Shown one piece after another: positions 1 through 64,000 of a stretch of 64,000 bases of DNA. Position 1 is the first letter of the stretch. Every line of letters starts with the position of its first letter. The translations under genes were made by a program, and so were the position numbers. Source of the stretch: Microscillaceae bacterium (lineage in GTDB: Bacteria > Bacteroidota > Bacteroidia > Cytophagales > Microscillaceae); the NCBI GenBank assembly GCA_025455045.1, contig JALONJ010000001.1, positions 3,642 to 67,641 on the forward strand. The letters are read 5' to 3'. Below the pieces are notes generated by a model that did not search any database, was not told the origin of the DNA, and saw nothing but the letters and a program-made list of their open reading frames with translations.

Positions 1-105
1 AAAATTTTAATTGCCAGTTCAAAATTATACTAGATTAAGGTTTAAAAAAACTTTTTTAAAGTTTTTGATGTCCGAATGAGTTTATATGTAAGATAATTAT
101 TTTTT

Positions 106-134
106 GTTAAGTATCTGATTATCAATGTTTTATG
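106..134. repeat. Family-A palindromic repeat
   Basis: gttaagtatc TGATTATCA atgttttatg. Confidence 0.85.
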
Positions 135-420
135 AAAAATGTATTTTTTTCAATAAGCATTAAATTATTGACAATCAAGATTTTAAAGAATTTTTGGTGA
201 TTTTGTTTGTGAATCAATGGCTTGCCGTAAAAGGTCATTTTTGTCGTGGTGCTTGGCTAACTTATACCCAAATACGTGCCAGCTCCTTGATTTAGTCGGA
301 AAATATTTCGCAAAATTTGTCGCAATTGTTAATTTTCAGCTCGGAGTTTCGGGTTTTCTGGTTCTCGATTCAATAGGCTCAATCAGAAAGAGTTTTTTCC
401 GCAAAAACCACTCTACTAAA

Positions 421-452
421 CCTCGACAAAGTTTTAAACTTTGCCAAAGTTC
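421..452. repeat. Family-D hairpin (degenerate copy)
   Basis: cctcgacaaagttttaaactttgccaaagttc. Confidence 0.6.
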
Positions 453-506
453 AACACTCATCAATTTTGAGCATAGCTGACAATCAGATATTATACAAAA
501 TTATTT

Positions 507-535
507 TATAACTAATTGATTATCAAATAGTTATA
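507..535. repeat. Family-A palindromic repeat
   Basis: tataactaat TGATTATCA aatagttata. Confidence 0.9.
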
Positions 536-703
536 GAAATTAAAATTCCAATACCCTTGCTTGTGTCTTCACGGGCAAGCGCGCGCTCAAAAGCCGGAAA
601 ATCCAAAAGTATTTTACAACTAATTGAATACCAAATAGTTATGAAAAATTTGGATAGCTTCGCACTTTTTTAGGCAATAAAAGCTAATTCAGAAAATAAA
701 AAC

Positions 704-742
704 CATTTACGGACGCAGGTCAGAAGCCTGCGTTACGATGTG
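704..742 (-). repeat. Family-B GC-hairpin repeat (short copy)
   Basis: catttacggACGCAGGtcagaagCCTGCGTtacgatgtg. Confidence 0.7.
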
Positions 743-846
743 AAAAATATAAAAACTGCCATTCAAGTTAATTGAATGACAGTTTTTAAAATTTAGGATT
801 TTGATAAATTAAGTATTAAAGATATAACTCCTTGATTATAAATATT

Positions 847-2470: not shown

Positions 2471-5400
2471 ATGATTGACAAAATCATAAAATTCAGTGTG
2501 CGGAATCCCCTTACCATTGCCATTTTCACTTTTATATTGGCGGCTTGGGGAGGCTATTCCTTGTATAATTTACCCATTGATGCCGTGCCAGATGTTACGA
2601 GCAATCAAGTAGATGTAATTACCTTAAGCCCCAGTTTGGCTTCTCTGGAAATTGAGCAGTTTATTACGGCACCTATCGAGATGTCAATGTCTAATTTGCC
2701 GGGCTTGGTGGAGATGCGCTCTATTTCCAAATTTGGTTTATCGGTCATAAAGTTGGTTTTTCGTGATGATGTAAATATATATTTGGCTCGCCAACAGGTT
2801 TTTGAACGTTTGGAAGCCGTGCAATCCGAAATTCCTGCCGAACTCGGCAAGCCTTATATGGGGCCGGTTTCGACGGGCTTGGGCGAGGTATTTCAATACT
2901 CCATTCGTGCCAAAGATCCCAAAGACAAGTCATTTACTCCTATGGAAATCCGAACTTTGCAAGATTGGGTTATCCGCAAACAACTCTTAGGCATTCCGGG
3001 TATAGCCGAAGTAAGTGGTTTTGGCGGCTACAAAAAAGAATATCAAGCCAAAATCAAATCCGACAGAATGAGAGCTTTGAACATTACGATTGATGATTTG
3101 TTCGAAGCCCTCAGCAAAGGCAACAGCAACACCGGCGGAGCTTATGTTGAAAAGAATAATAAAGCCTTCACTATCCGGGGTTTAGGCTTGGCTACTTCTT
3201 TGGAGGAGGTTGCCAATACCGTAGTCAAAGTGAATGACCGCGTACCGATTTTAGTCAAAGATGTCGCCGATGTCGAATTTGGCAACAGTATTCGCTATGG
3301 TGCAATGACCCAAGATGCTCAGGGTGAGGTAGTTGGGGGTGTCATTATGATGATGAAAGGCGAAAATGGTAGTGCTGTAATCGGGCGAATCAAAGAAAGA
3401 ATGAAAAAAATTGAGGCTTCTTTGCCCGAAGGTTTGGTGATTGAACCTTTTATCGACCGCGAAAAACTGGTTTCTAAGGCGATTTCTACCGTAAGAACTA
3501 ACTTGGTAGAAGGGGCAATTATTGTGGTCTTGGTGATTTTGTTGTTCTTGGGCAATTGGCGAGCCAGTTTGTTGGCGGCTTCGGTGATTCCGCTCTCGAT
3601 GTTGTTTGCTTTTGGTTTGATGCAACAATTTGGCGTAGTGGGTAATTTGATGAGCTTAGGGGCGATTGACTTTGGTTTATTGGTCGACCCTGCCATTATA
3701 GTCGTGGAGTCGGTGGTTTTGTTTTTGGCTTTGGCAATGGGTAAAAAAGCTAAAGGGCAAAAAATGACCTACCAAGAACGCCAAGAAGTAGTGATTTCGG
3801 CAACTGCCGAAGTAAAAAAATCGGTGATTTTTGGGGGATTGATTATTTTGATTGTCTATGTTCCTTTGATGACTTTATCGGGTATTGAAGGCAAAATGTT
3901 TATTCCAATGGCTAAAACCGTGAGTTTTGCCATTATGGGAGCTTTGTTATTAGCCATTACTTATATTCCAATGATGTGTGCTTTGGTCATCAAACCACCC
4001 AAATCAGCCCATCACGGGGGGATTTCGGAAATGATAGTCCAATTTTTATATAGATTATACAAACCCTTATTGGTTTTTGGCTTGCGTTACAAATTTGTGA
4101 TGGTGCTGTTGGCTTTTGGGGTGTTGTTTGCCGGAGGCATTGGTTTTAGTCGCATTGGTGGTGAGTTTATCCCCAAATTAGCCGAAGGCGATTTGGTCTT
4201 GGATATGAGTTTACCAATTGGAACTTCTTTGACCGAATCTATCCAATTGAGTGAAAAAATCCAAAAAGTATTACAAAAAGAATTTCCTGACGAAATTGAG
4301 CGCATTGTTTCCAAAATCGGTACGTCCGAAGTGCCGGTCGATCCGATGCCTTTGGAAGCCCAAGAGATTGTAGTGGTTTTGAAAGATAAAAAATACTGGA
4401 AAAAAGCCCACGACCAAGAAGCCTTAGTAGTGGAATTTGACAAGGTAATGAAGCAGTTTCCGGGTTTGATTTTGTCTATTCAACAACCCATCGAGAATCG
4501 GGTGAATGAAATGATGAGTGGGGCAAGAACCGATGTGGTGGTCAAATTATTTGGACCTAATTTGGATACTTTGGTCAAAAAAGGCAATCAAGTCATCAGC
4601 ATTGTCAAAACCATCCAAGGCGCAACCGATGTGCAAGAAAACAAAATATTTGGCTTACCGCAAATCAATATCAAATACAACCGCGAGCAAATGGCGGTTC
4701 ACGGCATCACAGTCGCGCAAATCAATCGCGCAATCAATGTAGCCTACGCGGGGGCGATTGCCGGAATTGTGTATGAAAACGACAAAAGATTTGATTTGAC
4801 CATTCGCCTCTCCAATGAAGACCGCGAAAAAGCCGAAGATTTGGGTAGTTTGAGTGTAAGTGATAAAGACGGGCTGCCCATTCCTTTGAATCAATTGGCT
4901 ACCATTACCGAAAATATCGGACCTTCGGAAATTGGTCACGAAGATTTGAAACGCCGAGCCAATATCGGCTTCAACGTGCGCGGGCGCGACCTCGAGTCCG
5001 TGGTAAAAGATGCAATGAAAGAAGTAAACCAAAAAGTATTGTTGCCGCCGGGCTATACCATTGAATTTGGTGGCGAGTTTGAAAACTACCGCCGCGCCAG
5101 CGAGCGTTTGGCGATTGTAGTGCCGATAGCTTTGCTCATTATTTTAGGTTTGTTATATGCCACTTTCGGCAATTTGAAAGATAGCTTATTAATCTATACC
5201 GTAGTGCCTTTGTCGGCAGTTGGGGGCGTATTTTCCTTATTGTTCCGAGATATGAATTTTAGTATTTCGGCGGGCGTTGGTTTTATTGCCCTGTTTGGGG
5301 TGGCGGTTTTGAATGGAATTTTGATTATCGGGCAAATTAGCAACTTGGAAAAACAAGGAATTAAAAATTTGAATCGACGAATTTTAATGGGGGTCAAAGA

Positions 5401-6826
5401 TAGATTTCGCCCGATTTTGATGACCTCAGCAGTGGCGGCTTTGGGCTTTTTGCCAATGGCTTTGTCCACGAGTGCGGGGGCAGAAGTGCAAAAACCTTTG
5501 GCGACCGTAGTAATTGGTGGTTTGTTTACTGCAATGGTGCTTACTTTATTGGTTTTGCCGGTCTTGTATGCCATTTTCAATCCTGCTAAACAAAATTCTA
5601 CGGCTGGTAAAGCCCCCCGATTAGCCAAAGCCATAGCGGTAATTGCCTTATTATTAATGACTTATCCATTGATGGCGCAAGAGCGAATTTCGGTCAATGA
5701 AGCCGTGAATCGAGCTTTGACTAAAAACCCCGAGATGAAATTAGCCGACCAAAAAATTCAAAAAGAGGTGGCTTTGCGTCCGGCAATGCTAAATTTGGAT
5801 AATCCCTCTCTGATTTTTGAAGCCCCGACCGGACGCGGACAACGCCCCGGCTTGATGCAAACTTTTCAATATCCGGGAGTTTATTCGGCGCAAATCAATG
5901 CCCAAAAAACTAGGGTCAATATGAGCGAAACCGAAAAGCAAATCAATCGCAATCAATTGGTTTATCGAGTCAAAACGACTTATACCGATTTGCAATTTTT
6001 GTTGGAAAAAGTGAAACTTTTGCGCGGGCAAGATTCGGTTTATTCGGATATTTTGCGGGTCAATGAAGTGCGTTACAAAGTAGGGCAAATCTCGAATTTG
6101 GAAAAAATCAATGGCGAATCACAATACAAAAAAATTCAATACAATCGCGCCCAAGCCGAAGCCGACTTACGCAATGCCAAGTATCAATTGAGTTATTTGT
6201 TGGGCAATCCTTCAGATACGGCTTTTTTGCCGGATGCAAAACTCAATCGACTTGCCCCACCTTTGTCGGTCAATGAAGCGGATACGACTTTATTTGAAAA
6301 TAATCCCTTGACTAATTTTAATCGCCAAACGAGGTTGTATAACCAACAATTGTTAAAAGCCGAAAGAAGAAGGCAGTTGCCGGGCTTGGCTTTAGGCTAT
6401 CTTGACCAAGGCGACACCCGCGAAGGGCAGGTTACGCCGGTGCAATACCGCTTACAATTTGGCATTACTTTACCGATTTGGTATTGGGTAAAAAGAGCCA
6501 ATATCAATGTCGCCAAAAAGAATGTGGAAATGGCGCAAACTCAAGCGCAAATCACCAATTATCAATTGGGTACTGAACTCTCGAAAGCCATTGCCGACTA
6601 CCGCCAAAATAACCAAAATTTGGAATATTTTGAAACGGTGGGCATCAAACAAGCCGAAGAAATTATCCGCGATTCGCGCGAAAATTATCGTTTGGGTACC
6701 ATTGGTTATTATGCTTATTTGCAAAATTTGGAATTGGCTTACCAAATCGAACTCAATTATTTGGAAAGTCTTAAAAAATATAATCAATCAATTATCAATA
6801 TCAATTATTTAAAAGGAACGCTTTAG
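2471..6826 (+). CDS. czcA: CusA/CzcA-family heavy-metal RND efflux permease fused in frame to a TolC/CzcC-like outer membrane factor domain
   Basis: 1451-aa uninterrupted ORF; N-terminal ~1040 aa look like CzcA/CusA (MIDKIIKFSVRNPLT..., RND 12-TM layout); aa ~1067-1451 are TolC-like (NPEMKLADQKIQ..., two repeat halves, C-terminal YLESLKKYNQS); the parts are joined by a signal-peptide-like segment RLAKAIAVIALLLMTYPLMAQ. Confidence 0.9.
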   Translation: MIDKIIKFSVRNPLTIAIFTFILAAWGGYSLYNLPIDAVPDVTSNQVDVITLSPSLASLEIEQFITAPIEMSMSNLPGLVEMRSISKFGLSVIKLVFRDDVNIYLARQQVFERLEAVQSEIPAELGKPYMGPVSTGLGEVFQYSIRAKDPKDKSFTPMEIRTLQDWVIRKQLLGIPGIAEVSGFGGYKKEYQAKIKSDRMRALNITIDDLFEALSKGNSNTGGAYVEKNNKAFTIRGLGLATSLEEVANTVVKVNDRVPILVKDVADVEFGNSIRYGAMTQDAQGEVVGGVIMMMKGENGSAVIGRIKERMKKIEASLPEGLVIEPFIDREKLVSKAISTVRTNLVEGAIIVVLVILLFLGNWRASLLAASVIPLSMLFAFGLMQQFGVVGNLMSLGAIDFGLLVDPAIIVVESVVLFLALAMGKKAKGQKMTYQERQEVVISATAEVKKSVIFGGLIILIVYVPLMTLSGIEGKMFIPMAKTVSFAIMGALLLAITYIPMMCALVIKPPKSAHHGGISEMIVQFLYRLYKPLLVFGLRYKFVMVLLAFGVLFAGGIGFSRIGGEFIPKLAEGDLVLDMSLPIGTSLTESIQLSEKIQKVLQKEFPDEIERIVSKIGTSEVPVDPMPLEAQEIVVVLKDKKYWKKAHDQEALVVEFDKVMKQFPGLILSIQQPIENRVNEMMSGARTDVVVKLFGPNLDTLVKKGNQVISIVKTIQGATDVQENKIFGLPQINIKYNREQMAVHGITVAQINRAINVAYAGAIAGIVYENDKRFDLTIRLSNEDREKAEDLGSLSVSDKDGLPIPLNQLATITENIGPSEIGHEDLKRRANIGFNVRGRDLESVVKDAMKEVNQKVLLPPGYTIEFGGEFENYRRASERLAIVVPIALLIILGLLYATFGNLKDSLLIYTVVPLSAVGGVFSLLFRDMNFSISAGVGFIALFGVAVLNGILIIGQISNLEKQGIKNLNRRILMGVKDRFRPILMTSAVAALGFLPMALSTSAGAEVQKPLATVVIGGLFTAMVLTLLVLPVLYAIFNPAKQNSTAGKAPRLAKAIAVIALLLMTYPLMAQERISVNEAVNRALTKNPEMKLADQKIQKEVALRPAMLNLDNPSLIFEAPTGRGQRPGLMQTFQYPGVYSAQINAQKTRVNMSETEKQINRNQLVYRVKTTYTDLQFLLEKVKLLRGQDSVYSDILRVNEVRYKVGQISNLEKINGESQYKKIQYNRAQAEADLRNAKYQLSYLLGNPSDTAFLPDAKLNRLAPPLSVNEADTTLFENNPLTNFNRQTRLYNQQLLKAERRRQLPGLALGYLDQGDTREGQVTPVQYRLQFGITLPIWYWVKRANINVAKKNVEMAQTQAQITNYQLGTELSKAIADYRQNNQNLEYFETVGIKQAEEIIRDSRENYRLGTIGYYAYLQNLELAYQIELNYLESLKKYNQSIININYLKGTL

Positions 6827-6933: not shown

Positions 6934-6962
6934 CATAAATAGTTGATAATCAAGTAATTATA
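6934..6962. repeat. Family-A palindromic repeat
   Basis: cataaatagt TGATAATCA agtaattata; inside the czc operon, 41 nt before the czcB ATG. Confidence 0.9.
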
Positions 6963-8205: not shown

Positions 8206-8261
8206 GGTATAAAATTAAGAATTAAGTAATGAATTAATTATAAGATGTGCTGATGTGCTAA

Positions 8262-8290
8262 TGTAATACATTGATTATCAATTAATTCAT
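8262..8290. repeat. Family-A palindromic repeat
   Basis: tgtaatacat TGATTATCA attaattcat. Confidence 0.85.
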
Positions 8291-8394: not shown

Positions 8395-8441
8395 AAGCAA
8401 TAATTTCTGTTAACAATAGTTCGGACAGTTTCTAGTTATTT

Positions 8442-8470
8442 ACTAAGCATCTGATAATCAGTTAGTTACA
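8442..8470. repeat. Family-A palindromic repeat
   Basis: actaagcatc TGATAATCA gttagttaca. Confidence 0.9.
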
Positions 8471-8487
8471 TAAAACATTTAAAATAG

Positions 8488-8516
8488 CATAACTAGCTGA
8501 TAATCAATTACTTATA
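8488..8516. repeat. Family-A palindromic repeat
   Basis: cataactagc TGATAATCA attacttata. Confidence 0.9.
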
Positions 8517-8869
8517 AAAACTGTCCGAAGTATTGGTTAAGGAACGAAGAACTAAATAAAAAATCTCCACATCTCGATTAGGAATCAAAAAAAAATCTGT
8601 AAAGTTTTTGCTTTTCAGTGATTCAGGCTGAAAGAAGGTAGCTTAGCCGTTCTCTACTCAAAGTTAAGATTCCTCAGAGCCTCGCTTGGTAATTTCACCA
8701 AGCGATAGCTTGGCTCATTAATGGTCGGAATGACAAAAAAAATACTTTTCCTGTAATCCAAAATTCTAAAGATATTTTATTAGTCAAGTGAAAAAACCCG
8801 CACAAGGTGTCGAGCAGGCAGGACTTTTAGTTCTCGCTTGCTTTTTTTATGCTCAGCATAGGCTAAAAA

Positions 8870-8898
8870 TATAACTAACTGATTATCAGGCATTTGTA
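8870..8898. repeat. Family-A palindromic repeat
   Basis: tataactaac TGATTATCA ggcatttgta. Confidence 0.9.
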
Positions 8899-9013: not shown

Positions 9014-9042
9014 GCTAAACACTTGATAATCAAGTGTTTAAC
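9014..9042. repeat. Family-A palindromic repeat
   Basis: gctaaacact TGATAATCA agtgtttaac; near-perfect 23-nt palindrome; contains the coaE stop codon. Confidence 0.9.
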
Positions 9043-11143: not shown

Positions 11144-11172
11144 TGTAACCAACTGATAATCAATTAGTTATG
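11144..11172. repeat. Family-A palindromic repeat
   Basis: tgtaaccaac TGATAATCA attagttatg. Confidence 0.9.
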
Positions 11173-13064: not shown

Positions 13065-13093
13065 TATAACTAATTGATTATCAATTTTTTATG
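13065..13093. repeat. Family-A palindromic repeat
   Basis: tataactaat TGATTATCA attttttatg; divergent accA/moeB spacer. Confidence 0.9.
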
Positions 13094-13177: not shown

Positions 13178-14308
13178 ATGATGTTTCGAGCAGAAGAGTA
13201 CCAAAGATATAATCGACATTTGATAATGCCCGAAGTAGGGCTTGCCGGACAAGCCAAGCTCCAACAAGCCAAAGTCTTGGTAGTAGGCGCGGGCGGCTTG
13301 GGCTGTCCGGTTTTACAATATTTGGCGGCGGCTGGAGTAGGCAATCTTGGCATTGTTGATGGCGACAAGATTGATATAAGTAATTTGCAAAGACAAATTT
13401 TATACACTACCGCCGAATTGGGGCAAAGCAAGGCTCGCGTGGCACAAACCAAAATACAAGCCCTCAATCCGCACGTGTATAGCCAAGCATTTGACACACA
13501 CTTGACCCGCGACAATGCCTTGAAAATCATTGCCGATTATGACTTGGTGGTGGACTGTACCGACAATTTTCCTACACGCTATCTTATTAATGATGCCTGT
13601 GTTATTTTGCAAAAAACCTTGATTTTTGGAGCTATTTACAAATTTGAGGGGCAAGTAAGTGTTTTTAATTTCCCTCTTAGCGAGCAAGAGCGCAGTGCCA
13701 CCTACCGTTGTTTGTTTCCCAAAATGCCCAACGCGGCAGAAGTTCCCAATTGTGCCGAAGCTGGCGTGATAGGGGTTTTGCCCGGCATTATTGGCACTTT
13801 GCAGGCAAATGAAGTTATCAAAATCATTGTGGGCTTGGGCGAACCTTTGGCAAATCAAATATGGTTGTTGGACGCGCTCACTTTGCAAAGCCGTAAAATC
13901 AAATTTAAACGGATACCTGAGCAAGCAAATATTAGCCAACTCACTGATTATCAGGAGGTTTGTATAACCTCTCCCAACAAAAACCCAATAAAGTCCATTA
14001 GCCCGCAAACCTTGCAAAGCGAATTGACTACGGGCAAGGATTGGCAAATTATAGATGTGCGCGAGGATTACGAGTTTGAAATATGCCATCTGCCCCAAGC
14101 CCAATTGATACCTTTGGGGCAAATTAGGCATCATATTGCCCAAATAGCCACTCATCAACCGGTAGTAGTTTATTGCCACCACGGTATGCGTAGTGCCAAA
14201 GCCATTCAAGAATTACAAAAAATCTACCCGTTTAACAACTTGTATAATTTGGCAGGCGGGATTCACGCTTGGGCTACCGAAGTGGATATTGAAATGATGA
14301 CTTATTAA
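13178..14308 (+). CDS. moeB: ThiF/MoeB-family adenylyltransferase with C-terminal rhodanese domain
   Basis: YQRYNRHLIMPEVGLAGQAKL, GAGGLGCP nucleotide-binding loop, CxxC-like region, C-terminal rhodanese (VVVYCHHGMRSAKA); ORF opens at 13115 but ATG 13178 (MMFRAEEY) gives the canonical N-terminus. Confidence 0.85.
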   Translation: MMFRAEEYQRYNRHLIMPEVGLAGQAKLQQAKVLVVGAGGLGCPVLQYLAAAGVGNLGIVDGDKIDISNLQRQILYTTAELGQSKARVAQTKIQALNPHVYSQAFDTHLTRDNALKIIADYDLVVDCTDNFPTRYLINDACVILQKTLIFGAIYKFEGQVSVFNFPLSEQERSATYRCLFPKMPNAAEVPNCAEAGVIGVLPGIIGTLQANEVIKIIVGLGEPLANQIWLLDALTLQSRKIKFKRIPEQANISQLTDYQEVCITSPNKNPIKSISPQTLQSELTTGKDWQIIDVREDYEFEICHLPQAQLIPLGQIRHHIAQIATHQPVVVYCHHGMRSAKAIQELQKIYPFNNLYNLAGGIHAWATEVDIEMMTY

Positions 14309-52998: not shown

Positions 52999-53027
52999 TT
53001 TAATTCCTTGATAATCAAGCATTTATT
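52999..53027. repeat. Family-A palindromic repeat
   Basis: tttaattcct TGATAATCA agcatttatt. Confidence 0.85.
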
Positions 53028-53028
53028 C

Positions 53029-54530: not shown

Positions 54531-54623
54531 TACAAGGTTTAAATCAGGGGCAAAACTACCACATTTTTTTGAGGGAACAATTAAATAGGAATGAGTTAAT
54601 TATAAAATGTGCTAGTTTGCTGA

Positions 54624-54652
54624 TGCAATACACTGATTATCAATTAATTATA
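54624..54652. repeat. Family-A palindromic repeat
   Basis: tgcaatacac TGATTATCA attaattata. Confidence 0.85.
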
Positions 54653-54736: not shown

Positions 54737-54765
54737 CACAATGAATTGATTATCAATATTTTGTA
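54737..54765. repeat. Family-A palindromic repeat
   Basis: cacaatgaat TGATTATCA atattttgta. Confidence 0.85.
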
Positions 54766-54853: not shown

Positions 54854-55837
54854 TTATTGGTTTTTTAGGACAATAAAAGTCTGGGTCTTTTTCTCCTCTG
54901 TACCACTGGTATCAAAGGCTAAGGGCGAATAATTTTTGGGCAATAAAGCCGAACTTACGCCATTTTTTGCCAAAAAATCACTGATTTTTTGGGCTTTGGT
55001 GGCTGAGGCATCTTGATGTTCGCTATCAGGGGTCTCGCTGGCAATCATCACACTTACATTTTTATGATTGACCAATACATCAGCCAATACTTCTAGGGCT
55101 TTTTTGCCTATGTCATTCAAATTCAAGGACTTATCAAACCAAGCCTCATCACCCAAAGCCAGCAAAGTCTGGTTTTCAAGGGTTTTGATTTGCAATTCAT
55201 TTTCCTTAAAATTCTCGAGCAAATTTTTCAACTGCTCCGAGAGTTTTTGTGCCGACAGCCGCGCGGTTTCACTGATAGGATTCTGAGGGGCTGCTTCAGT
55301 ATTTGGACTTTTAAGTATCTGATTATTAAGCACTTGCGAATTTGGAGCATTTTGCAAATCAGGATTTGGGTTGGTCTGTGGGCTGGTATAAATCCCGTTG
55401 GAATTAGATATACTGGGATTGATTTGCCCATTTGGTTTGACTTGTTGTGCCAAATAACGTACTTCTTGATTTTTGGCTTCCAAATTTTGGCGATGCAAAT
55501 TGGCTTCCTGAGAGCTGTTTTTTGCCAATTGGTCATATTCACTGACCAAACGCGTGTATTCGGTTTGCCATTTGCCTACAATTTCGTTGAGGCTATCTTG
55601 TTGTTGGCGCATTTTATACTCAAGGCGTGCGTTTTCAGTTCTTAGCTGTTGAATCTGATTTTGCAAATAAACCATTTCGCTGCGAGCTTTGTCCAATTGC
55701 ATATCTTTGCCCCGCCCCGCAAGTTCAGTTTCTTGAGCTTGCGACATTGCGGACTGATATTTTTTTGAACTTACACAAGCCCCCAGCCAAAAAGTGCCAC
55801 TAAGTAAGATAATAATTTTAATGCGTAAATTTTTCAT
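54854..55837 (-). CDS. coiled-coil lipoprotein with degenerate OmpA/MotB-like C-terminal domain
   Basis: ATG 55837 gives MKNLRIKIIILLSGTFWLGAC lipobox; long coiled coil; low-complexity N/P/Q linker; C-terminal ALEVLADVLVNHKNVSVMIASETPD...ATKAQKISDFLAKNGV resembles OmpA_C. Confidence 0.6.
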   Translation of the reverse strand: MKNLRIKIIILLSGTFWLGACVSSKKYQSAMSQAQETELAGRGKDMQLDKARSEMVYLQNQIQQLRTENARLEYKMRQQQDSLNEIVGKWQTEYTRLVSEYDQLAKNSSQEANLHRQNLEAKNQEVRYLAQQVKPNGQINPSISNSNGIYTSPQTNPNPDLQNAPNSQVLNNQILKSPNTEAAPQNPISETARLSAQKLSEQLKNLLENFKENELQIKTLENQTLLALGDEAWFDKSLNLNDIGKKALEVLADVLVNHKNVSVMIASETPDSEHQDASATKAQKISDFLAKNGVSSALLPKNYSPLAFDTSGTEEKKTQTFIVLKNQ

Positions 55838-55841: not shown

Positions 55842-55870
55842 TATAAACGGTTGATTATCAGCATTTCATC
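55842..55870. repeat. Family-A palindromic repeat
   Basis: tataaacggt TGATTATCA gcatttcatc; 14 nt from the lipoprotein start codon at 55837. Confidence 0.85.
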
Positions 55871-55989: not shown

Positions 55990-56018
55990 TATAAGTATCT
56001 GATTATCAATTGATTACA
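55990..56018. repeat. Family-A palindromic repeat
   Basis: tataagtatc TGATTATCA attgattaca. Confidence 0.9.
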
Positions 56019-56209: not shown

Positions 56210-56238
56210 TATAATAATTTGATAATCAAATAGTTATA
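56210..56238. repeat. Family-A palindromic repeat
   Basis: tataataatt TGATAATCA aatagttata. Confidence 0.9.
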
Positions 56239-58482: not shown

Positions 58483-58511
58483 GGTAATCATCTGATAATC
58501 AAGGTTTTACT
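58483..58511. repeat. Family-A palindromic repeat
   Basis: ggtaatcatc TGATAATCA aggttttact. Confidence 0.8.
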
Positions 58512-58835: not shown

Positions 58836-58912
58836 TCCGCCTCAAGCGGAGTATAGGCGTGGGTGGCTAGATGCAAAGAGACAGCTAAGTACTTGATAAT
58901 CAAGTGATTATA
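58836..58912 (-). mobile_element. Family-F internal fragment
   Basis: ctccgcctcaagcggagtataggcgtgggtggctag...(A core 58894); matches 14690-14772. Confidence 0.5.
58884..58912. repeat. Family-A palindromic repeat
   Basis: gctaagtact TGATAATCA agtgattata. Confidence 0.9.
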
Positions 58913-59228: not shown

Positions 59229-60374
59229 ATGCACTACGACTATATTTTGGCAGGGGCGGGTTGCGCCGGTTTGAGCCTGGCTTATCGCCTCAATCAACAC
59301 CCCGAGCTAAGGCAGAAAAAAATTTTAGTTCTGGACAAAAACCTCAAAAATCAAAATGACCGAACTTGGTGTTTTTGGGTACAGGGTTCTACCCCTTTTG
59401 ATGCCATTGCTCACAAAACTTGGGACAATATTTGGTTTCATCACGCCGCCTTTTCCCAAAAATTTAATCTTGCGCCGTATCGCTACCAAATGATTCGCGG
59501 CTTAGATTTTTATGAATTTGTGTTGAATGATTTGTCCCAAAACCCTCATATCACTATTCAATGGGGCAACATTGCCAATCTCCAAAGTCAAGCTCAAGTA
59601 GCCAGCTTAGAGCTTGATAATCAGGCTATTACCGCCGATTGGATATTCAACAGCCTGCCCCCGACAATGCCCGAAAAACGCCCCAATTTTCATTATTATT
59701 TGCAACATTTCAAGGGTTGGGTGGTCGAGACTCCGCAAGCCTTTTTTGATGACTCGACGGCTACTTTTATGGATTTTCGCATACCCCAGCAAAGCGGCGA
59801 AGCTCGTTTTTTTTACGTGTTGCCCACTTCGCCCACGCGAGCTTTGGTAGAGTTTACAGTATTTTCCGAAAATTTATTGCCCGAGGCACAATACGACGAA
59901 GAATTGAAAAAGTATTTTCAAACATTCTTGCAACTATCTGATTATCAAATAGTTGAGCAAGAATTTGGAATTATTCCAATGTACGATACTTCGTTTGCTA
60001 CCCGACACAGTCCTCGTATTCTCAACATTGGCATTACCGGCGGACGTGCCAAAGCCAGCACCGGTTATACGTTTATGAATATTCAAAAACAAAGCGACCG
60101 AATCATTGCCTCTTTGCTCAACAATCAGCACCCTTTTTATACTGAATCAGCTTGGCATCGCTTTCAATTGTATGATAGTATGCTTCTCAATGTCTTAAAA
60201 AACCACCGTAAACTTGCCGCCGATGTATTTCGGATAATGTTTGAACGGCATCCGCTACCCCGGATATGGCGTTTTTTGGACGAAAAATCCAATTTTTGGG
60301 AAGAACTCCAAATTATGGCTTCGATGCCTCCCCTACCCTTTTTGCAAGCCCTGCCACAGGTTTTGTGGCGATGA
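59229..60374 (+). CDS. crtY: lycopene cyclase family protein
   Basis: 381 aa; N-terminal FAD fold YDYILAGAGCAGLSLAYRL; EQEFGIIPM and GITGGRAKASTGYTF blocks typical of CrtY/CrtL. Confidence 0.8.
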   Translation: MHYDYILAGAGCAGLSLAYRLNQHPELRQKKILVLDKNLKNQNDRTWCFWVQGSTPFDAIAHKTWDNIWFHHAAFSQKFNLAPYRYQMIRGLDFYEFVLNDLSQNPHITIQWGNIANLQSQAQVASLELDNQAITADWIFNSLPPTMPEKRPNFHYYLQHFKGWVVETPQAFFDDSTATFMDFRIPQQSGEARFFYVLPTSPTRALVEFTVFSENLLPEAQYDEELKKYFQTFLQLSDYQIVEQEFGIIPMYDTSFATRHSPRILNIGITGGRAKASTGYTFMNIQKQSDRIIASLLNNQHPFYTESAWHRFQLYDSMLLNVLKNHRKLAADVFRIMFERHPLPRIWRFLDEKSNFWEELQIMASMPPLPFLQALPQVLWR

Positions 60375-60581: not shown

Positions 60582-60771
60582 GGCTTAAAAAAAAATTTTT
60601 GAATTACTGATTAATGTTATTATATAAATTATTTTAATAAAATTATAAATAAAAAATAAAATAATGAATCCAATTTTTTCTCGCTCGTTGTCGATTTCCA
60701 TTTTTAGGAATAATTGCAAAATAAAGTAAACTTTTTAAAAACATAATCAATTGAAAATCAGGCAATTAAAC

Positions 60772-60827
60772 AATTCCTAATTCCCAATTATTAATTCCTA
60801 ATTCCTGATTCCTGATTCCTTATTCTC
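60772..60827 (+). repeat. 7-nt tandem repeat x8 (consensus AATTCCT)
   Basis: aattcct aattccc aattatt aattcct aattcct gattcct gattcct tattctc. Confidence 0.85.
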
Positions 60828-60957
60828 ATTGTTTTAGTTATTTTTGAAACTTATCATTAATTTGCCCTTGATTTGTAAACAATTCGATTTTAATTTTTTT
60901 TTCTATAAAAATTGTCTTGTCAAATTCCAATTTTCAATTCCTAAATTTTGTTAAATA

Positions 60958-62742
60958 ATGGAACCGATTACAGGCTTAGATGCTACTTTTTTATATACCG
61001 AAACCGCCAATAGCCCAATGCACGTGGGCAGTGTGGCGGTGATAGAAGGCTCTTTAAATTTTGAAGACTTTAGGCAGGTTTTGCTCTCGCGCTTGCATTT
61101 AATCCCCAAATTGCGCCAAAAGCTGGTCCAAGTTCCCTTTAATATAGACTATCCTTATTGGGCTGATGACCCCAATTTTGATATTGATATGCACCTTCAG
61201 CATATTGCACTGCCTCAGCCCGGCAGTTGGAAAGAGTTGCGCAATACTGCCTCGAGTATTATGAGCGAACATCTCGACCGCTCGCGCCCCTTGTGGTCAA
61301 TTACTTTTGTCGAGGGCTTGAATAATATTCCGCAGGTTCCGGCAGGTTCGGTGGCTTTGATAGCCAAAATTCACCACGTAGCCATCGATGGAATGGCGGG
61401 CGCAGGTTTGTTGAGCTTGATTTTTGATTTTAGCCCCAAGCCGGCAAAGTTGCCCGCGCCCAAACCTTACGAACCAAAACCCTTTCCTGACCAGTTTTCG
61501 TTGATTTATAACAGTACGATGAGCTTTTTGTCTAAGCCCCTCAGACTGCCACAAGTCTTATCTGATGCGGTTTCGACTACTTTCAAACTGGGTTTTATGA
61601 ATCAAGCTCAAAATATTAAGTTGCCGATTGCGCCCTTTACGGCACCCCCCAGTGTTTTGAATCGAATTATCTCTCCACGAAGAAAATGGAATACGGCAAT
61701 CTTGTCGCTCGATCGCGTAAAAGCCCTCAAAGATGCGATGGACACTACGCTGAATGATGTGATTTTAGCAATTTGTTCGGGAGCTTTGCGGCGATATTTG
61801 TTAGAAAAAAAGAAATTGCCTTTAAAACCCTTGGTGGGAATGGTGCCAATCTCGACGCGAACTCCGGCAGAAAACCGTGATTTGGGCAATCAGATTTCTT
61901 CTATGCTGGTGCAATTGCCCACCCATATCGAAGACCCGATAGAACGCCTTGAGACTGTCCACGAAAATACCATTCGCGGCAAAATCTATCAACAGGCTTT
62001 GGGCGCAAAAACCCTCGCCAAACTTGCCGAAGCTGTTCCGTTTGGCATTGCCAATCAAGCGGCGCAATTGTACTCGCAATATCAAATCGCCGAAATGCAC
62101 AATCCCGTTTTTAATGTAACGATTACCAATGTACCGGGTCCGCAAATGCCTTTGTATATCAATGGGCATAAATTGCTCTCGGTAATGGGTATGGCACCTA
62201 TTATTGATGGGATGGGCTTGATAATCACTATATTCAGTTATAATGGCTTGATAACTGTCAGCCCTACCTCTGATGCCAATACGATGCCCGATATTGATGT
62301 ATTTACACGCTACTTGCGCGAATCGGCAAATGAGTTGGAAGCCGCTATCCAAAAACACCTAGCCGAAAAAGAATTGAAAAATCCCGAAGAGCCTCAAGAA
62401 TCACAAATAGATAAGCTCTTTGAGATGCTCAAAAACTTGCTCAAAAACAATGCCGAGCAAATACCGGCAAATAGCGGAGTTTTTCAGCTCGAAATTCAAA
62501 ATAAAAATACGCATTATTGGAAAATTGACTTGCGAAAATCGCCCGGTATCTTGAAAAAAGAAGAAGCCACCAAGCCCGATGTAAGCCTCAAAATCAAAGA
62601 AGAACACTTGAGCAGACTTTTGCAAGGTGAATTTGGCTGGGAAACGGCTTATGTGCAAGGTAGGCTGAACTTGGAAGGCGACAAAAACAAACTCAAGAAT
62701 CTTGATGCGATGTTTGCCAAAACCTTGGCAACCAATGCTTGA
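60958..62742 (+). CDS. wax ester synthase/diacylglycerol acyltransferase (WS/DGAT) with C-terminal SCP2 sterol-carrier-like domain
   Basis: 594 aa; LDATFLYTETANSPMHVG, active-site HHVAIDGMAG (HHxxxDG), NVPGPQMPLY; last ~100 aa (FQLEIQNK...AYVQGRLNLEGDKNKLKNLDAMF) look like SCP2. Confidence 0.85.
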   Translation: MEPITGLDATFLYTETANSPMHVGSVAVIEGSLNFEDFRQVLLSRLHLIPKLRQKLVQVPFNIDYPYWADDPNFDIDMHLQHIALPQPGSWKELRNTASSIMSEHLDRSRPLWSITFVEGLNNIPQVPAGSVALIAKIHHVAIDGMAGAGLLSLIFDFSPKPAKLPAPKPYEPKPFPDQFSLIYNSTMSFLSKPLRLPQVLSDAVSTTFKLGFMNQAQNIKLPIAPFTAPPSVLNRIISPRRKWNTAILSLDRVKALKDAMDTTLNDVILAICSGALRRYLLEKKKLPLKPLVGMVPISTRTPAENRDLGNQISSMLVQLPTHIEDPIERLETVHENTIRGKIYQQALGAKTLAKLAEAVPFGIANQAAQLYSQYQIAEMHNPVFNVTITNVPGPQMPLYINGHKLLSVMGMAPIIDGMGLIITIFSYNGLITVSPTSDANTMPDIDVFTRYLRESANELEAAIQKHLAEKELKNPEEPQESQIDKLFEMLKNLLKNNAEQIPANSGVFQLEIQNKNTHYWKIDLRKSPGILKKEEATKPDVSLKIKEEHLSRLLQGEFGWETAYVQGRLNLEGDKNKLKNLDAMFAKTLATNA

Positions 62743-62756
62743 TTGGAATGATAATG

Positions 62757-62788
62757 CAAGCGTCCGATTTCAAAAAATCGGACGCTTG
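62757..62788. terminator. hairpin terminator between the convergent WS/DGAT and M3 peptidase genes
   Basis: caagcgtccgattt caaaaaa tcggacgcttg followed by ttggtttct. Confidence 0.75.
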
Positions 62789-62854
62789 TTGGTTTCTATA
62801 AGTTTATAAATGATTTTAAATAAATATAAATATCTTATAATCCTCCAAAGGCGG

Positions 62855-62941
62855 GGTGCATTTCAAATTTACGCGTTTCTATTGCCTCACCCTAGCCCTC
62901 TCCAAAGGAGAGGGTTATAGGTAGTAAATTTGAAATGCACC
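62855..62941. mobile_element. 87-bp MITE (Family M) with perfect 17-bp terminal inverted repeats and 10-bp target-site duplication
   Basis: TIRs GGTGCATTTCAAATTTA (62855-62871) and TAAATTTGAAATGCACC (62925-62941); flanking direct repeats CCAAAGGCGG at 62845-62854 and 62942-62951; internal hairpin ccctctcc aaa ggagaggg. Confidence 0.8.
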
Positions 62942-62984
62942 CCAAAGGCGGACACAAGCAAATAGTTATGAAAAATGATCTTCA

Positions 62985-64000
62985 CTATTTAATCAATCCC
63001 GTCTTCTTCAACAAAGCCTCTGGAGCGGGTTCTTTGCCTCGAAAACGTTTGTAAAGAGTCATTGGGGGTTCGCTTCCGCCTTTTGCCAAAATATGGTTTT
63101 TGAAAGATTGGGCAGTAGCGGTATCAAACATTCCTTTCTCTTGAAACAGCTCAAAAGCATCGGCTTCCAGTACTTCTGCCCATTTGTAGCTGTAATAACC
63201 TGCCGCATAGCCCCCGCTAAAAATATGGGTAAATGAAGTACTCATATTTGTACCTTCCCAAGTCGGGAAAAGGGCAGTTTCAGCCATTGTGGCATTTTCA
63301 AATTGGGCTACATCGGCGATGTTTTGCGGGTTTTGGGCGTGCCAAGCCATATCTAATTTACCAAAGCTGATTTGCCTAACTGTCTGATAACCAGACATAT
63401 AATTGGCTGAGTCTTTGATTTTTTGGATTAATTCTGCCGGAATCGGCTCATTGGTTTCATAATGACGAGCAAACAAATCCAAAGATTCTTTTTCATACGC
63501 CCAGTTTTCAAAAAATTGCGAAGGCAATTCCACAAAATCCCAATAAACATTCGTTCCCGAAAGGCTCTCGTATTGGCAATCTGCCAACATTCCGTGGAGG
63601 GCGTGACCAAATTCGTGAAAAAAAGTAGTTACTTCATTAAAAGTCAATAAACTAGGCTTGGTAGGCGTGGACTTGGTAAAATTGCATACAATCGAGATAT
63701 GCGGGCGGTGGTTGATGCCATTTTCCTTTTTTTGTCCGCGAAACGAAGTCATCCAAGCCCCGCCTTGCTTACCGGCACGAGGGAAGAAATCGGCATATAA
63801 TACCGCAATATGCTCATTATCAGCACTTTGCACTTCATAAGCGATTACTTCGGGGTGATAAACGGCAATATCTTTGCGCTCAACAAACTTCAAATTGTAG
63901 AGTTTTTCGCTTACTTTAAAGATACCTTCAATGACATTTTCCAGTTTGAAATACGGTTTCAAGATTTCATCATCAATATTGAATTTTTCTTTTTTCAATT
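62985..64000 (-). CDS. dcp: M3-family metallopeptidase (peptidyl-dipeptidase Dcp / oligopeptidase A-like), 5' end beyond the window
   Basis: C-terminal about 338 aa; zinc motif HEFGHALH; the M3 fold places this motif about 460 aa into the protein, so the N-terminal half lies past 64000. Confidence 0.85.
   Translation of the reverse strand, partial: LKKEKFNIDDEILKPYFKLENVIEGIFKVSEKLYNLKFVERKDIAVYHPEVIAYEVQSADNEHIAVLYADFFPRAGKQGGAWMTSFRGQKKENGINHRPHISIVCNFTKSTPTKPSLLTFNEVTTFFHEFGHALHGMLADCQYESLSGTNVYWDFVELPSQFFENWAYEKESLDLFARHYETNEPIPAELIQKIKDSANYMSGYQTVRQISFGKLDMAWHAQNPQNIADVAQFENATMAETALFPTWEGTNMSTSFTHIFSGGYAAGYYSYKWAEVLEADAFELFQEKGMFDTATAQSFKNHILAKGGSEPPMTLYKRFRGKEPAPEALLKKTGLIK

Follow-up and report, generated by a model that had tools for sequence, protein, structure and literature searches.

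A dyad-symmetric 25-bp motif amplified between the genes of a Microscillaceae bacterium is a candidate site for an IHF/HU-family protein

Results

Copies of the motif along the window

The window analyzed here is a 64,000-nucleotide stretch of a Microscillaceae genome (contig JALONJ010000001.1, positions 3,642 to 67,641), whose genes include an AcrB-HlyD operon, coaE, the divergent pair accA and moeB, a gene of 791 amino acids and an open reading frame (ORF) of 381 amino acids. A palindromic motif recurs along it. Copies are given below by their position in the window, with no strand assigned, each followed by its score in bits against a position weight matrix (PWM) made from the motif copies.

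The first eight copies are TAAGTATCTGATTATCAATGTTTTA (108-132, 26.7), TAACTAATTGATTATCAAATAGTTA (509-533, 33.1), TAACTCCTTGATTATAAATATTTTA (825-849, 18.6), CAAATAATTGATTATCAGTTGTTTA (1434-1458, 28.5), TAAGTATTTGATAATCAATCAATTG (2001-2025, 24.6), TAAAGAGCTGATAATCAGGTATCAA (2099-2123, 17.4), TAACTACTTGATTATCAATTAGTTA (2188-2212, 34.0) and TAAATGCTTGATAATCAGGTATTTA (2332-2356, 28.0). The next, TAAATAGTTGATAATCAAGTAATTA (6936-6960, 31.5), lies within a spacer of the AcrB-HlyD operon, and is followed by TAATACATTGATTATCAATTAATTC (8264-8288, 22.2) and by two copies 46 nt apart, TAAGCATCTGATAATCAGTTAGTTA (8444-8468, 29.0) and TAACTAGCTGATAATCAATTACTTA (8490-8514, 32.0), that belong to a 108-nt composite (8428-8535). 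Beyond TAACTAACTGATTATCAGGCATTTG (8872-8896, 30.8), the copy TAAACACTTGATAATCAAGTGTTTA (9016-9040, 27.7) overlaps the end of coaE, a minus-strand gene whose stop codon is the copy's TCA. After TAACCAACTGATAATCAATTAGTTA (11146-11170, 31.6), the divergent accA/moeB spacer holds TAACTAATTGATTATCAATTTTTTA (13067-13091, 30.8), and a weak copy, CAACTCACTGATTATCAGGAGGTTT (13937-13961, 16.8), falls within moeB.

Further along are TATAAATCTGATTATCAGATACTTA (14478-14502, 25.0), TAAGTATTTGATTTTCAGTTATTTA (14590-14614, 24.5), TAAGTATCTGATAATCAGGTGTTTA (14746-14770, 30.1), TAACTACCTCATAATCAAATAGTTA (16449-16473, 23.6), TAAGTCATTGATAATCAGGTATTTA (17691-17715, 32.8), TAACTAGCTGATTATCAGATACTTA (17736-17760, 31.6), TAACTCATTGATTATCAGATATTTA (17852-17876, 30.4), TAAACAACTGATAATCAATGAATTA (23167-23191, 30.6), TAATTACTTGATAATCAATTAGTTG (24574-24598, 29.2), TAACTCATTGATAATCAATTATTTA at both 26878-26902 (29.8) and 27048-27072 (31.9), TAACTAACTCATTATCAGTTAGTTA (29383-29407, 22.4), TAAGTAATTGATAATCAAGTGGTTA (29493-29517, 31.1), TAAACACTTGATTATCAGCTACTTA (29717-29741, 29.8), CAACTAATTGATTACCAATCACTTA (29964-29988, 21.1), TAAAATTCTGATTATCATATACTTA (30040-30064, 23.1), TAAATACCTGATTATCAGCTACTTA (30279-30303, 31.4), TAAATAATTGATAATCAGATAATTA (30589-30613, 29.8), TAAACTACTGATAATCAATAAATTA (33180-33204, 23.1), AAAATAGCTGATAATCAATCCATTA (33411-33435, 18.8), TAAATCTTTGATTATCAGAGATTTA (34555-34579, 29.3), TAAGTACCTGATAATCAAACCTTTA (34706-34730, 28.4), TAAGTATTTGATTATCAATCACTTA (35622-35646, 30.7) and TAAGCGATTGATTATCAAGCAGATA (36358-36382, 23.0). 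At 36627-36671 the motif is split, its parts TAAATATTTGA and TAATCAAACAATTA (the latter scoring 18.0) being separated by the 20-nt insert CCGTGTCTGCCTCTAGTTGA; the same arrangement, also assigned to repeat family D14, recurs at 47586-47630, where CCGTGTCTGCCTCTGGCTGA (20 nt) parts TAAATAATTGA from TAATCAATGTATTA (right part 17.1).

Between these two split copies lie TAATCACTTGATTATCAATGATTTA (38665-38689, 29.7), TAAAAACCTGATTATCAGGTATTTA (39051-39075, 29.1), TAAATCGCTGATTATCAATCAAATA (39331-39355, 22.4), TAATTAATTGATAATCAGGGCTTTA (42640-42664, 27.1), TAAATACTTGATTATCAAGTACTTA (42805-42829, 34.1), TAACTTTCTGATAATCAGATACTTA (45347-45371, 28.1), whose TGA serves as stop codon for the 791-amino-acid gene, TAAACAATTGATTATCAATTACTTA (47174-47198, 31.4), and a second pair spaced by 46 nt in a composite at 47372-47479, with TAAGTGCTTGATTATCATATAGTTA (47388-47412, 25.9) and then TAACTAACAGATAATCAAGCACTTA (47434-47458, 23.9). 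The remainder comprises TAAAATATTGATAATCAGGTTTTTA (48962-48986, 26.3), TAATCAATTGATTTTCAAGTACTTA (49084-49108, 19.6), TAAATCATTGATAATCAAATAATTA (50011-50035, 29.5), TAAATTGCTGATAATCAACAATTTA (50164-50188, 25.3), TAATTCCTTGATAATCAAGCATTTA (53001-53025, 27.7), CAATACACTGATTATCAATTAATTA (54626-54650, 26.9), CAATGAATTGATTATCAATATTTTG (54739-54763, 20.1), the degenerate TAAGTATCTGATTATTAAGCACTTG (55312-55336, 18.7), TAAACGGTTGATTATCAGCATTTCA (55844-55868, 18.3), TAAGTATCTGATTATCAATTGATTA (55992-56016, 31.0), TAATAATTTGATAATCAAATAGTTA (56212-56236, 29.5), TAATCATCTGATAATCAAGGTTTTA (58485-58509, 25.3), TAAGTACTTGATAATCAAGTGATTA (58886-58910, 30.3), two copies within the 381-amino-acid ORF, of which TTAGAGCTTGATAATCAGGCTATTA (59607-59631, 18.9) is weak and CAACTATCTGATTATCAAATAGTTG (59931-59955, 25.6) is not so marked, and TAATCAATTGAAAATCAGGCAATTA (60744-60768, 19.7).

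Spacers hold 3-5 copies per kb whatever the orientation of their flanking genes (divergent 3.2, convergent 4.8, tandem 3.6), against 0.08 in coding sequence. Placement is independent of gene orientation, as originally claimed, and also of promoters. The accompanying statement that almost every intergenic region is occupied was slightly generous, 27 of 34 spacers in the window having at least one copy. Overall, non-coding DNA has a copy every 200-300 bp, or about one in 250 bases. Density rises roughly in proportion to spacer length and peaks in long convergent spacers, a pattern that tolerated junk would also produce.

Anatomy of the motif

The 62 exact matches to the core TGATWATCA that the original prediction counted were all recovered where it had placed them, whereas dinucleotide shuffles of the 64-kb window average 0.78 and never exceed 3. 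Its central base is A in 32 cores and T in 30, never G or C, and spacing is strict: TGAT and ATCA separated by 0 or by 2 to 7 nucleotides give only 0-6 matches each in the window. Eleven of 13 further cores described as having one mismatch do so; the other two, at 625 and 60522, each have good arms but two mismatches in the core.

The symmetry of the proposed consensus stands, although its 29-nt extent does not: the informative element is a 25-nt dyad running from -12 to +12, TAA-n-TA-n-Y-TGAT-W-ATCA-R-n-TA-n-TTA, and beyond it the T/A at ±13 and ±14 adds no more than 0.15-0.23 bits. Nor are both of the positions flanking the core free, the adjoining one being constrained to Y in the left arm and R in the right. 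Positions ±9 and ±6 hold 0.02-0.15 bits, beside positions of 1-2.3 bits. With up to three mismatches the 25-mer is matched 65 times in the window (0.02 expected), and the PWM finds 83 matches at the 12-bit and 68 at the 16-bit threshold used for copy counts, with no matches in shuffled sequence. The motif can equally be written as two inverted half-sites, W-ATCA-R-n-TA-n-TTA, that have the central A/T in common; perfect half-sites number 51 versus 0.65 expected, and almost all fall within full palindromes.

Comparison of relatives points to conservation position by position. In relative L168, whose AccA is 89% identical, a site occupies the same place in the diverged accA/moeB spacer and differs from the window's only at n, W and the weak TA, and in two Pedobacter species the motif differs at Y, W and n only. 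Change between orthologous copies is thus confined to degenerate or weakly conserved positions. The two arm scores of real sites are weakly anticorrelated (rho -0.32, p 0.04).

Protein site, hairpin or mobile repeat

A base-paired hairpin was rejected, since symmetric degenerate positions vary independently. At ±5 the pairs in the window copies are T-A (22), C-A (14), T-G (11) and C-G (11); pairing at ±9, ±13 and ±14 is like that of shuffles, and ±6 has a mild excess (27 versus 17 expected). Across 83 sites taken from other genomes of Bacteroidota and 108 from viruses, neither ±5 nor ±6 has a pairing excess; ±9 has one in the genome sites (z=3.0) and none in the viral sites. The double C/G at ±5 is not favoured either (3 of 83 genome and 8 of 108 viral sites). 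Apart from the mild ±6 excess in the window, then, the claimed lack of compensatory covariation is borne out. Hairpin prediction gives weak folds only (median -3.3 kcal/mol for 33 nt). Some residual probability attaches to a palindrome-making process, or structure, behind the motif, because arm-swapped chimeras fold slightly less well than real copies (-3.1 versus -3.9 kcal/mol, z about 3) and because of the mild covariation at ±6. All tests run nevertheless support the originally preferred reading, a symmetric signal for a dimeric protein, and the motif's pattern of variation, its exact spacing and the pairing of its half-sites into palindromes support its behaving as a protein site on duplex DNA rather than as a base-paired structure.

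A copy-and-paste repeat was likewise rejected, and there is no support for the suggestion that each copy joins two abutted terminal repeats from a mobile element. The n positions are almost information-free, target-site duplications were found at none of the motif boundaries, and the 64-kb window has no transposase, RAYT or integrase gene, in agreement with the original prediction. Because the n positions are near random, the copies are not derived from a single master sequence.

Distribution in Bacteroidota, viruses and mobile elements

The motif is not confined to the window. Its phylum-wide range, its use by phages and integrative elements, and the half-site identity discussed below all lie beyond the original prediction. 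At least 86 genome loci match the 25-mer, virtually all of them in Bacteroidota and drawn from all classes, as do at least 120 viral contigs, where composition-matched scrambled palindromes gave 1 and 3. The exact 25-mer occurs throughout Bacteroidota at about one per 290 kb. The amplification specific to this Microscillaceae lineage is roughly 300-fold; several copies are also present at some Arcicella, Bernardetiaceae and Saprospiraceae loci.

The crAssphage copy is located in the spacer preceding repL, between two 34-nt direct repeats and an AT-rich tract, and a predicted origin has been reported in that spacer (PMC10983915). At the mnmE stop codon of six Bacteroidales genomes, the att junction of a tyrosine-integrase element carries the motif too. 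There the host/element junction falls within the motif, as would be expected of a recombinase core site no less than of an accessory bending site. In many viral contigs the motif is found in modules for replication and recombination. Origins, att junctions and such modules are classical settings for integration host factor (IHF).

Discussion

The half-site is identical to the Escherichia coli IHF consensus WATCAR-N4-TTR in each of its nine specified positions, R degeneracies included. In an IHF site, WATCAA begins close to the centre and TTR follows 4 bp later, with 9 bp separating the two steps where prolines intercalate (PMC1874591); the T mutated in the TTR element (H'44A) is 6 bp from the nearest kink (PMC5829579). 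On this geometry the W at the centre would fall on the dyad, with kinks at A|R and at Y|T. Bacteroides has an IHF/HU-family host factor for integration, BHFa (PMC6606824).

Our best explanation, which we consider about evenly poised between right and wrong, is that a homodimeric architectural protein of the IHF/HU family binds the motif as a symmetric site of high affinity, and that this Microscillaceae lineage, like a few others, has amplified the site massively. Which protein binds and that the DNA bends are inferred, as are the purpose of the amplification and how it came about. Each copy would be a 25-bp dyad-symmetric site on double-stranded DNA, and the candidate binder a Bacteroidota counterpart of IHF, an abundant homodimer of the BHFa kind. 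Counting against it, no HU/IHF gene was found near any copy in 2.4 Mb of loci examined, and gene neighbourhood therefore singles out no particular protein. The dimer would be centred on the dyad, with the proline at the tip of each of its two beta-arms intercalating at an A|R step (±4.5, 9 bp apart); the arms would read ATCA in the minor groove, and the protein body would clamp the A/T-rich flanks and the TTA from ±10 to ±12, forcing the DNA into a sharp U-turn.

A few sites are present in most Bacteroidota and in their phages and integrative elements, at places that would call for an architectural bend: replication origins, att sites and gene ends, for example. In the Microscillaceae lineage the site has multiplied until one occurs every 200-300 bp or so of non-coding sequence; nearly every spacer would therefore hold one or several strong bends, and these might serve nucleoid compaction, or a topological or transcriptional barrier between genes.

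No published description of the 25-base palindrome was found in the searchable literature, nor any documented case of a palindromic, double-consensus IHF site. Among known systems, uptake sequences, to which the motif had been likened, do not resemble it, and the likeness to REP/BIME elements extends to density and location only. Counting against the IHF/HU reading, the Fur box has the same 9-bp core at its centre. Classical IHF sites, too, are unlike the motif: they are asymmetric and read by a heterodimer, whereas the motif described here is palindromic, and it carries TA at ±7 and ±8, where the E. coli IHF consensus has none.

A 25-bp palindrome repeated between genes

The nine-nucleotide core TGATWATCA occurs 62 times in the window, exactly the count given in the original prediction, against a mean of 0.78 and a maximum of three in dinucleotide-preserving shuffles. 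Its central position is A in 32 copies and T in 30, never G or C, and the TGAT and ATCA arms are found at any other spacing just 0 to 6 times. Alignment of the 62 copies yields a 25-nucleotide dyad, TAA-n-TA-n-Y-TGAT-W-ATCA-R-n-TA-n-TTA (written out as TAACTAATTGATTATCAATTAGTTA), with positions numbered here from -12 to +12 around the central W. Each position carries 0.65-2.3 bits of information at ±1 to ±5 and ±10 to ±12, about 0.4 bits at ±7 and ±8, and almost none at ±6 and ±9. Read outward from the centre, a half-site runs W, A, T, C, A, R (A in 36 copies, G in 22), n, T, A, n, T, T and A (53 copies, with G in 6), and is mirrored on the other arm; the flanks are weakly T-rich on the left and weakly A-rich on the right, with at most 0.4 bits, all A/T, beyond ±12.

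At three or fewer mismatches the 25-mer has 65 matches in the window where 0.02 are expected, and with a weight matrix derived from the copies, 83 sites score at least 12 bits and 68 at least 16, whereas shuffled sequence gives no hit. Perfect half-sites number 51 (0.65 expected), nearly all within full palindromes at a single spacing, while pairwise identity among the copies is just 71-84%. The initial observation is confirmed, with one correction at its margin: of thirteen additional cores described as having one mismatch, eleven are as claimed and two carry two.

On a conservative gene map, at least one copy lies in 27 of the 34 spacers, whatever the function of the gene, and long spacers hold up to seven. 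The density is 4.8 copies per kb in convergent spacers, 3.6 in tandem and 3.2 in divergent ones, and 0.08 in coding sequence. The AccA encoded in the window shows 100% identity to a protein listed by NCBI under uncultured Microscillaceae bacterium. The genes of the window include SusC/SusD, an AcrB-type pump, TopA and TonB; the pump, an AcrB-type RND protein, occupies residues 5-1036 of a single 1451-aa open reading frame (2471-6826) whose residues 1076-1245 form an outer-membrane efflux protein domain. Within the window the copies keep no preferred distance to start or stop codons.

A promoter element was rejected as a candidate, given the lack of a fixed start-codon distance and of any positional relation to the Bacteroidota -7 box TAnnTTTG. 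So was a DNA uptake sequence, a non-palindromic, oriented word common in genes, whereas the motif is palindromic and nearly restricted to spacers (0.08 per kb of coding sequence versus 3-5). Each strand of the motif carries TAA and TGA, in two frames, and at least two of the three frames per strand are closed in 61 of 65 copies, all six in only 10; the 45-fold depletion in coding sequence is only partly explained by stop codons, which were rejected as the whole reason for the intergenic restriction.

Duplex site or hairpin

A palindrome that often abuts stop codons could act as a hairpin in RNA or single-stranded DNA, serving as a terminator, a 3'-UTR stabiliser or a processing site. In one phage the motif stands between a stop codon and a sequence that by eye resembles an intrinsic terminator, and is therefore probably transcribed; real copies also fold slightly better than arm-swapped chimeras (-3.9 versus -3.1 kcal/mol, z about 3), a small excess that may reflect how some copies arise. 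Yet the predicted hairpin (33 nt) is weak, with a stem of nearly all A-T pairs, a median folding energy of -3.3 kcal/mol and a value of 0 in 10% of copies, and its arms vary independently. At ±5 the copies in the window combine T-A 22 times, C-A 14 times, and T-G and C-G 11 times each, and pairing at ±9, ±13 and ±14 is as in shuffles, with a mild excess at ±6 only. Independence at ±5 and ±6 is also seen in 108 viral-contig sites and in 83 sites of other genomes, with a double C/G at ±5 if anything avoided; an excess of pairing at ±9 in the genome set (z=3.0) is absent from the viral set. Apart from the mild ±6 excess in the window, neither ±5 nor ±6 thus shows compensatory covariation in any of the three independent data sets, in agreement with the original prediction. 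The T-rich 5' and A-rich 3' flanks, present on both strands, are the reverse of those of a terminator, copies are equally frequent in divergent promoter spacers, and Rfam at its gathering threshold has no match in the window and ten further loci. We consider a hairpin function extremely improbable. The intrinsic terminator in its usual form, a G+C-rich hairpin followed by a T run, was rejected on the single G-C pair per arm and the A-rich 3' flank on both strands.

The independence of the arms, the feeble hairpins, the pairing of half-sites at one exact spacing and an information profile that swings from about 0 to over 1 bit from position to position together argue for a duplex site read by a symmetric dimer, and support the dimeric protein site that was preferred from the outset.

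Mobile-element readings

The alternating profile also argues against neutral decay from a master element, and with it against the idea, first raised as an alternative, that the palindrome is a pair of abutted terminal repeats: the copies have no master-copy signature and no target duplication, and no transposase is present in the window. A broader form of this explanation takes the motif as a selfish miniature palindrome of the REP/RAYT or MITE type, spread by a transposase encoded elsewhere in the genome. It is indeed a high-copy extragenic palindrome, densest in long convergent spacers and slightly more self-complementary than expected, some copies lie inside larger duplicated units, and three pairs 45-46 nt apart recall REP doublets. 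Bacteroidetes have RAYT subclasses of their own, whose REPs are of 'atypical' structure (PMC6006769). However, direct repeats of 2-6 nt at boundaries from ±10 to ±26 are no commoner than in shuffles, leaving no boundary with a target-site duplication, and n positions that are near random beside near-invariant neighbors cannot result from neutral decay of a master copy. Searches of the window found no transposase, RAYT or integrase, as originally stated, and neither a transposase nor a HuH...Y (Y1/RAYT) signature was found in the window or in about 2.4 Mb (2.37 Mb) of motif-bearing loci. In REP/RAYT repeats the stem begins with a conserved tetranucleotide, GTAG or CGTC; the motif has neither head, and its flanks beyond ±12 are A/T only. 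Finally, the arms are independent, the hairpins are feeble, and the same motif is conserved between orthologous spacers and occurs at low copy number in every class of the phylum. We regard a selfish origin as quite doubtful. Among its specific forms, a MITE or abutted IS ends were rejected for want of target-site duplication and of uniform decay from a master, and a REP/RAYT stable stem-loop on the folding energies and the independence of the arms at degenerate positions.

Several other repeats were noted in the window. A roughly palindromic composite unit of 108 nt (8428-8535 and 47372-47479, 83% identical) contains two motif copies 45-46 nt apart, a spacing that recurs at 17703/17748 (17691-17760). 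At 36627-36671, 38972-39016 and 47586-47630 the motif is apparently interrupted behind its TGA by a 20-nt insert consisting of CCGTGTCTGCCTCTRGY and a second TGA, which could be a small motif-targeting element or a variant with half-sites two helical turns apart. A second dispersed repeat, the strong G+C-containing palindrome AACTTCGGCAAAGTTTAAAACTTTGCCGAAGTT, is found at 419-451, 26837-26869, 27007-27039 and 41835-41867 (88-100% identical), and two of its copies directly adjoin motif copies. A family of about 200 nt in long convergent spacers (29647-29846, 30209-30408 and 14342-14532, the two long copies being 91% identical) holds a motif copy and a G+C-rich hairpin (GGTCTCTGACC...CCGGCTTTGCCGAGC), and may be a small RNA gene or a MITE. 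A short sequence resembling GTGCTGATGTGCTAAT lies immediately left of three motif copies (8245-8262, 39030-39050 and 54605-54625), and about seven tandem copies of the 21-nt repeat AACTAGAAACCCGAAACTCGG (17883-18029) lie just upstream of a SusC-like gene and downstream of three motif copies.

Distribution and conservation

Confinement to the window, which would have counted against a general signal, was not found. With one genome per species scanned, the strict 25-mer is present in at least 86 genome loci, and among the matches listed virtually all are from Bacteroidota, with every class represented (Saprospiraceae, Chitinophagaceae, Sphingobacteriales, Cytophagales, Flavobacteriales and Bacteroidales); two matching contigs are labelled Rhodobacterales MAGs, a doubtful label because their G+C content is 31-38%. 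Among IMG/VR viral contigs at least 120 contain the strict 25-mer, compared with 1 and 3 for two composition-matched scrambled palindromes. The searchable literature yielded no description of the motif, the core and 11-mers matching only Fur boxes, primers and unrelated items.

The window has 68 hits of 16 bits or more in 64 kb. In 575 kb around accA from 80 other Bacteroidota, metagenome loci at most 77% identical that serve as a density background only, there are two, or about one per 290 kb. High density recurs in some other lineages: a relative with 79% AccA identity has about one hit per kb at a 10-bit threshold and 14 of at least 16 bits in 21 kb, and at 12 bits or more there are 9 in 6 kb of an Arcicella contig and 4 per 5-8 kb at some loci of Bernardetiaceae and Saprospiraceae. 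In viral contigs the motif is found at the ends of SSB, exonuclease, DNA-methyltransferase-neighboring and capsid-like genes. A looser related palindrome, TAAGTCGTTGA-nn-ATCAA-n5-TTA, occurs in repeated pairs 42 nt apart in one viral contig (L178, for example 551-593, 888-930 and 2069-2111) and in seven copies within 1.7 kb at another locus (L256).

Individual copies could be compared in a few orthologous spacers. In two Pedobacter species the motif follows just after the stop codon of mnmG, and the 25 nucleotides differ at Y, W and one n, with the sequence diverging past about +15. The window and its closest relative (AccA 89% identical), for which only contigs of 1-2.5 kb are available, have in common a copy that precedes moeB by about 100 nt and accA by about 130 nt; the rest of this spacer aligns poorly, and the two versions of the motif differ solely at n, W and the weakly conserved TA. 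At 79% AccA identity this copy is lost and others are present nearby instead, and a search for further spacers around TonB found no close homologue. Scores of the two arms of real sites are weakly anticorrelated (rho -0.32, p 0.04), as predicted by selection on total affinity and not by joint decay with age. These cases are few, and all point toward purifying selection on the specified positions.

Attachment junctions and predicted replication origins

In several genomes the motif lies next to mnmE or mnmG. In loci from six Bacteroidales genera (L011, L016, L044, L051, L062 and L074) it overlaps the mnmE stop codon, where host DNA meets an element that is nearly identical from locus to locus and codes for a tyrosine integrase (Arm-DNA-bind_5 domain), two HTH_17 proteins and SIR2-like/HerA-like cargo; several of these contigs end shortly after the junction. 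The left arm of the motif varies with the host and the right arm, the element's own, is constant, which places the junction of this tyrosine-integrase element within the motif (for example L062:5157-5181). At a further locus a different element abuts the motif after mnmE (L069:7741-7765).

Both elements would fit a motif that is itself the core site of a tyrosine recombinase, with two 9-nt arms around a 7-bp overlap, GATWATC, and chromosomal copies as targets or relics. But a chromosome with thousands of sites able to recombine with one another would be scrambled, the symmetric overlap would give no directionality, and copies with core mismatches are retained; the motif is also found in a predicted replication origin and at many phage gene ends with no integrase nearby. 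A recombinase core is, in our view, very unlikely.

The origin in question is that of prototypical crAssphage, in which a copy with one mismatch, TAACTTATTGATAATCAAGTAATTA, lies upstream of repL (gp88), with two 34-nt direct repeats on one side and an AT-rich tract on the other (viral locus L292:974-1140; BK010471.1, about 95,930-96,090). A replication origin has been predicted directly upstream of crAssphage repL (PMC10983915). The repL spacer has the layout of an iteron-type origin. Integration sites and origins are the classical places of integration host factor action. A host factor of the IHF/HU family, BHFa, has been reported for CTnDOT integration in Bacteroides (PMC6606824).

A general link to oriC and DnaA was rejected, DnaA boxes occurring near the motif at 0.44 versus 0.34 per kb with no overall enrichment. 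One genomic locus has four DnaA-box-like 9-mers no more than 300 nt from the motif (L041:1914-2220), the only such cluster among the loci, and in another a perfect DnaA box, TGTGGATAA, lies 30 nt from it (L055:640-690); these two sites may be chromosomal origins.

A candidate IHF-type site and its binder

The consensus of E. coli IHF is WATCAR-N4-TTR, and each half of the motif, read from the center outward as W-ATCA-R-nnnn-TT-A, agrees with it at all nine specified positions, degeneracies included. The geometry fits as well. In an IHF site WATCAA begins near the center, TTR follows four bp further on, and two proline-intercalation steps, usually ApA, lie nine bp apart in mid-site (PMC1874591); the TTR-element T that is mutated in H'44A lies six bp from the nearest kink (PMC5829579). 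In the motif, 9 bp separate the Y|T step (-5/-4) from the A|R step (+4/+5), and the T at +11 is six bp from the latter. The kinks would thus fall at these two steps, with W on the dyad. The asymmetry of IHF sites, which have the consensus on one half and an A-tract on the other and are bound by an alpha/beta heterodimer, is absent from this strict palindrome, so an IHF-type reading needs a homodimer and the motif is at most a symmetric variant of the family; on the match of sequence and geometry, it is what a fully symmetric IHF site would be predicted to look like. No HU or IHF gene adjacent to copies was found in the 2.4 Mb of loci by tblastn with approximate E. coli IHF-alpha, IHF-beta and HU-alpha queries.

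With moderate confidence, we propose that the motif is a symmetric high-affinity site for an architectural protein of the IHF/HU family in Bacteroidota, probably co-opted by phages and integrative elements and multiplied to thousands of copies in a few lineages, including that of the window. The most plausible role of closely spaced sharp bends in almost all spacers would be to compact the DNA or to insulate neighboring genes.

All evidence for a selected duplex site read by a dimer would equally fit the operator of some other binder conserved across Bacteroidota, such as an undescribed nucleoid protein, a Fur-like metalloregulator or a global regulator of the ribbon-helix-helix or HTH type; copies in spacers would then serve for repression or as roadblocks. 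A small gene 56 nt downstream of the motif in one phage family looks HTH-like by eye, with no confirmation from Pfam or PHROGs, and the core TGATAATCA is the center of the 19-bp Fur box GATAATGATAATCATTATC. The Fur box as such, three GATAAT hexamers upstream of iron-regulated genes, was rejected: only the central 9 bp agree, the motif having TA instead of AT at -8/-7 and Y instead of A at -5. One site per 250 bp of spacer, beside unrelated genes and in convergent spacers, is no regulon, and phage-specific repressors would not have one operator in common across a phylum. In HTH dimers the half-sites center about 10 bp apart; a footprint of 25 bp whose conserved blocks lie at ±2.5, ±7.5 and ±11 is not typical of them. 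A binder of this other kind therefore seems unlikely, if less so than a structural or mobile origin.

The IHF/HU-type reading can be extended, tentatively, to a possible homodimeric, sequence-specific IHF-like protein of Bacteroidota with a 25-bp palindromic high-affinity site, of which several Cytophagales/Saprospirales lineages would independently have installed thousands, about one per 250 bp of every spacer. The spacers would then be selected arrays of protein-induced U-turns, a positioned, insulator-like layer of chromosome architecture not known from any bacterium, and phages and integrative elements would copy the site for their origins and att sites.

Bacteroidota are central to gut and environmental microbiology, and their nucleoid proteins are almost unstudied. 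If the IHF/HU-type reading is true, the recognition sequence of their integration-host-factor equivalent is in hand, along with a means of predicting, from sequence, the replication origins and att sites of their phages, crAssphage included, and of their integrative elements. A bending-protein site could then itself become a selected genome-wide repeat, a route to 'repetitive extragenic palindromes' other than RAYT-driven REPs. Whatever the binder, this is a phylum-wide 25-bp signal of about 30 bits.

Comparison with known systems

The Fur box has the same central 9 bp and a dyad centered on one A/T, but the motif differs from it in the flanks at ±5, ±7 and ±8, in a genomic spread that is not that of a regulon, and in its presence in phage replication modules. 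REP and REPIN sequences with their RAYT (TnpA-REP) partners are likewise extragenic, palindromic, high-copy and sometimes in close pairs; unlike them, the motif has no GTAG/CGTC head, no stable or covarying stem and no RAYT found with it, and its copies are identical only at protein-like contact positions.

With the IHF sites of Enterobacteria, such as lambda H', the motif has in common the nine consensus positions, the 9-bp kink spacing, A/T-rich flanks, and use at an att junction and a predicted replication origin. As a candidate site, it differs from them in forming a perfect dyad of two overlapping inverted consensus elements that implies a homodimer, in an extra conserved TA at ±7 and ±8, and in being Bacteroidota-specific, with more than one copy per kb in some lineages. 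The RIP/RIB elements of E. coli (BIMEs with an IHF site) and the Correia elements of Neisseria are dispersed intergenic repeats that carry the site of a nucleoid bending protein, in both cases as a passenger in a longer repeat that is copied whole, made of REP palindromes in the first and a MITE with inverted repeats and a TA duplication in the second. In the motif, by contrast, the protein-site-like palindrome is the entire element, with free n positions and no duplication, and we class it among repeats made of putative nucleoid-protein binding sites.
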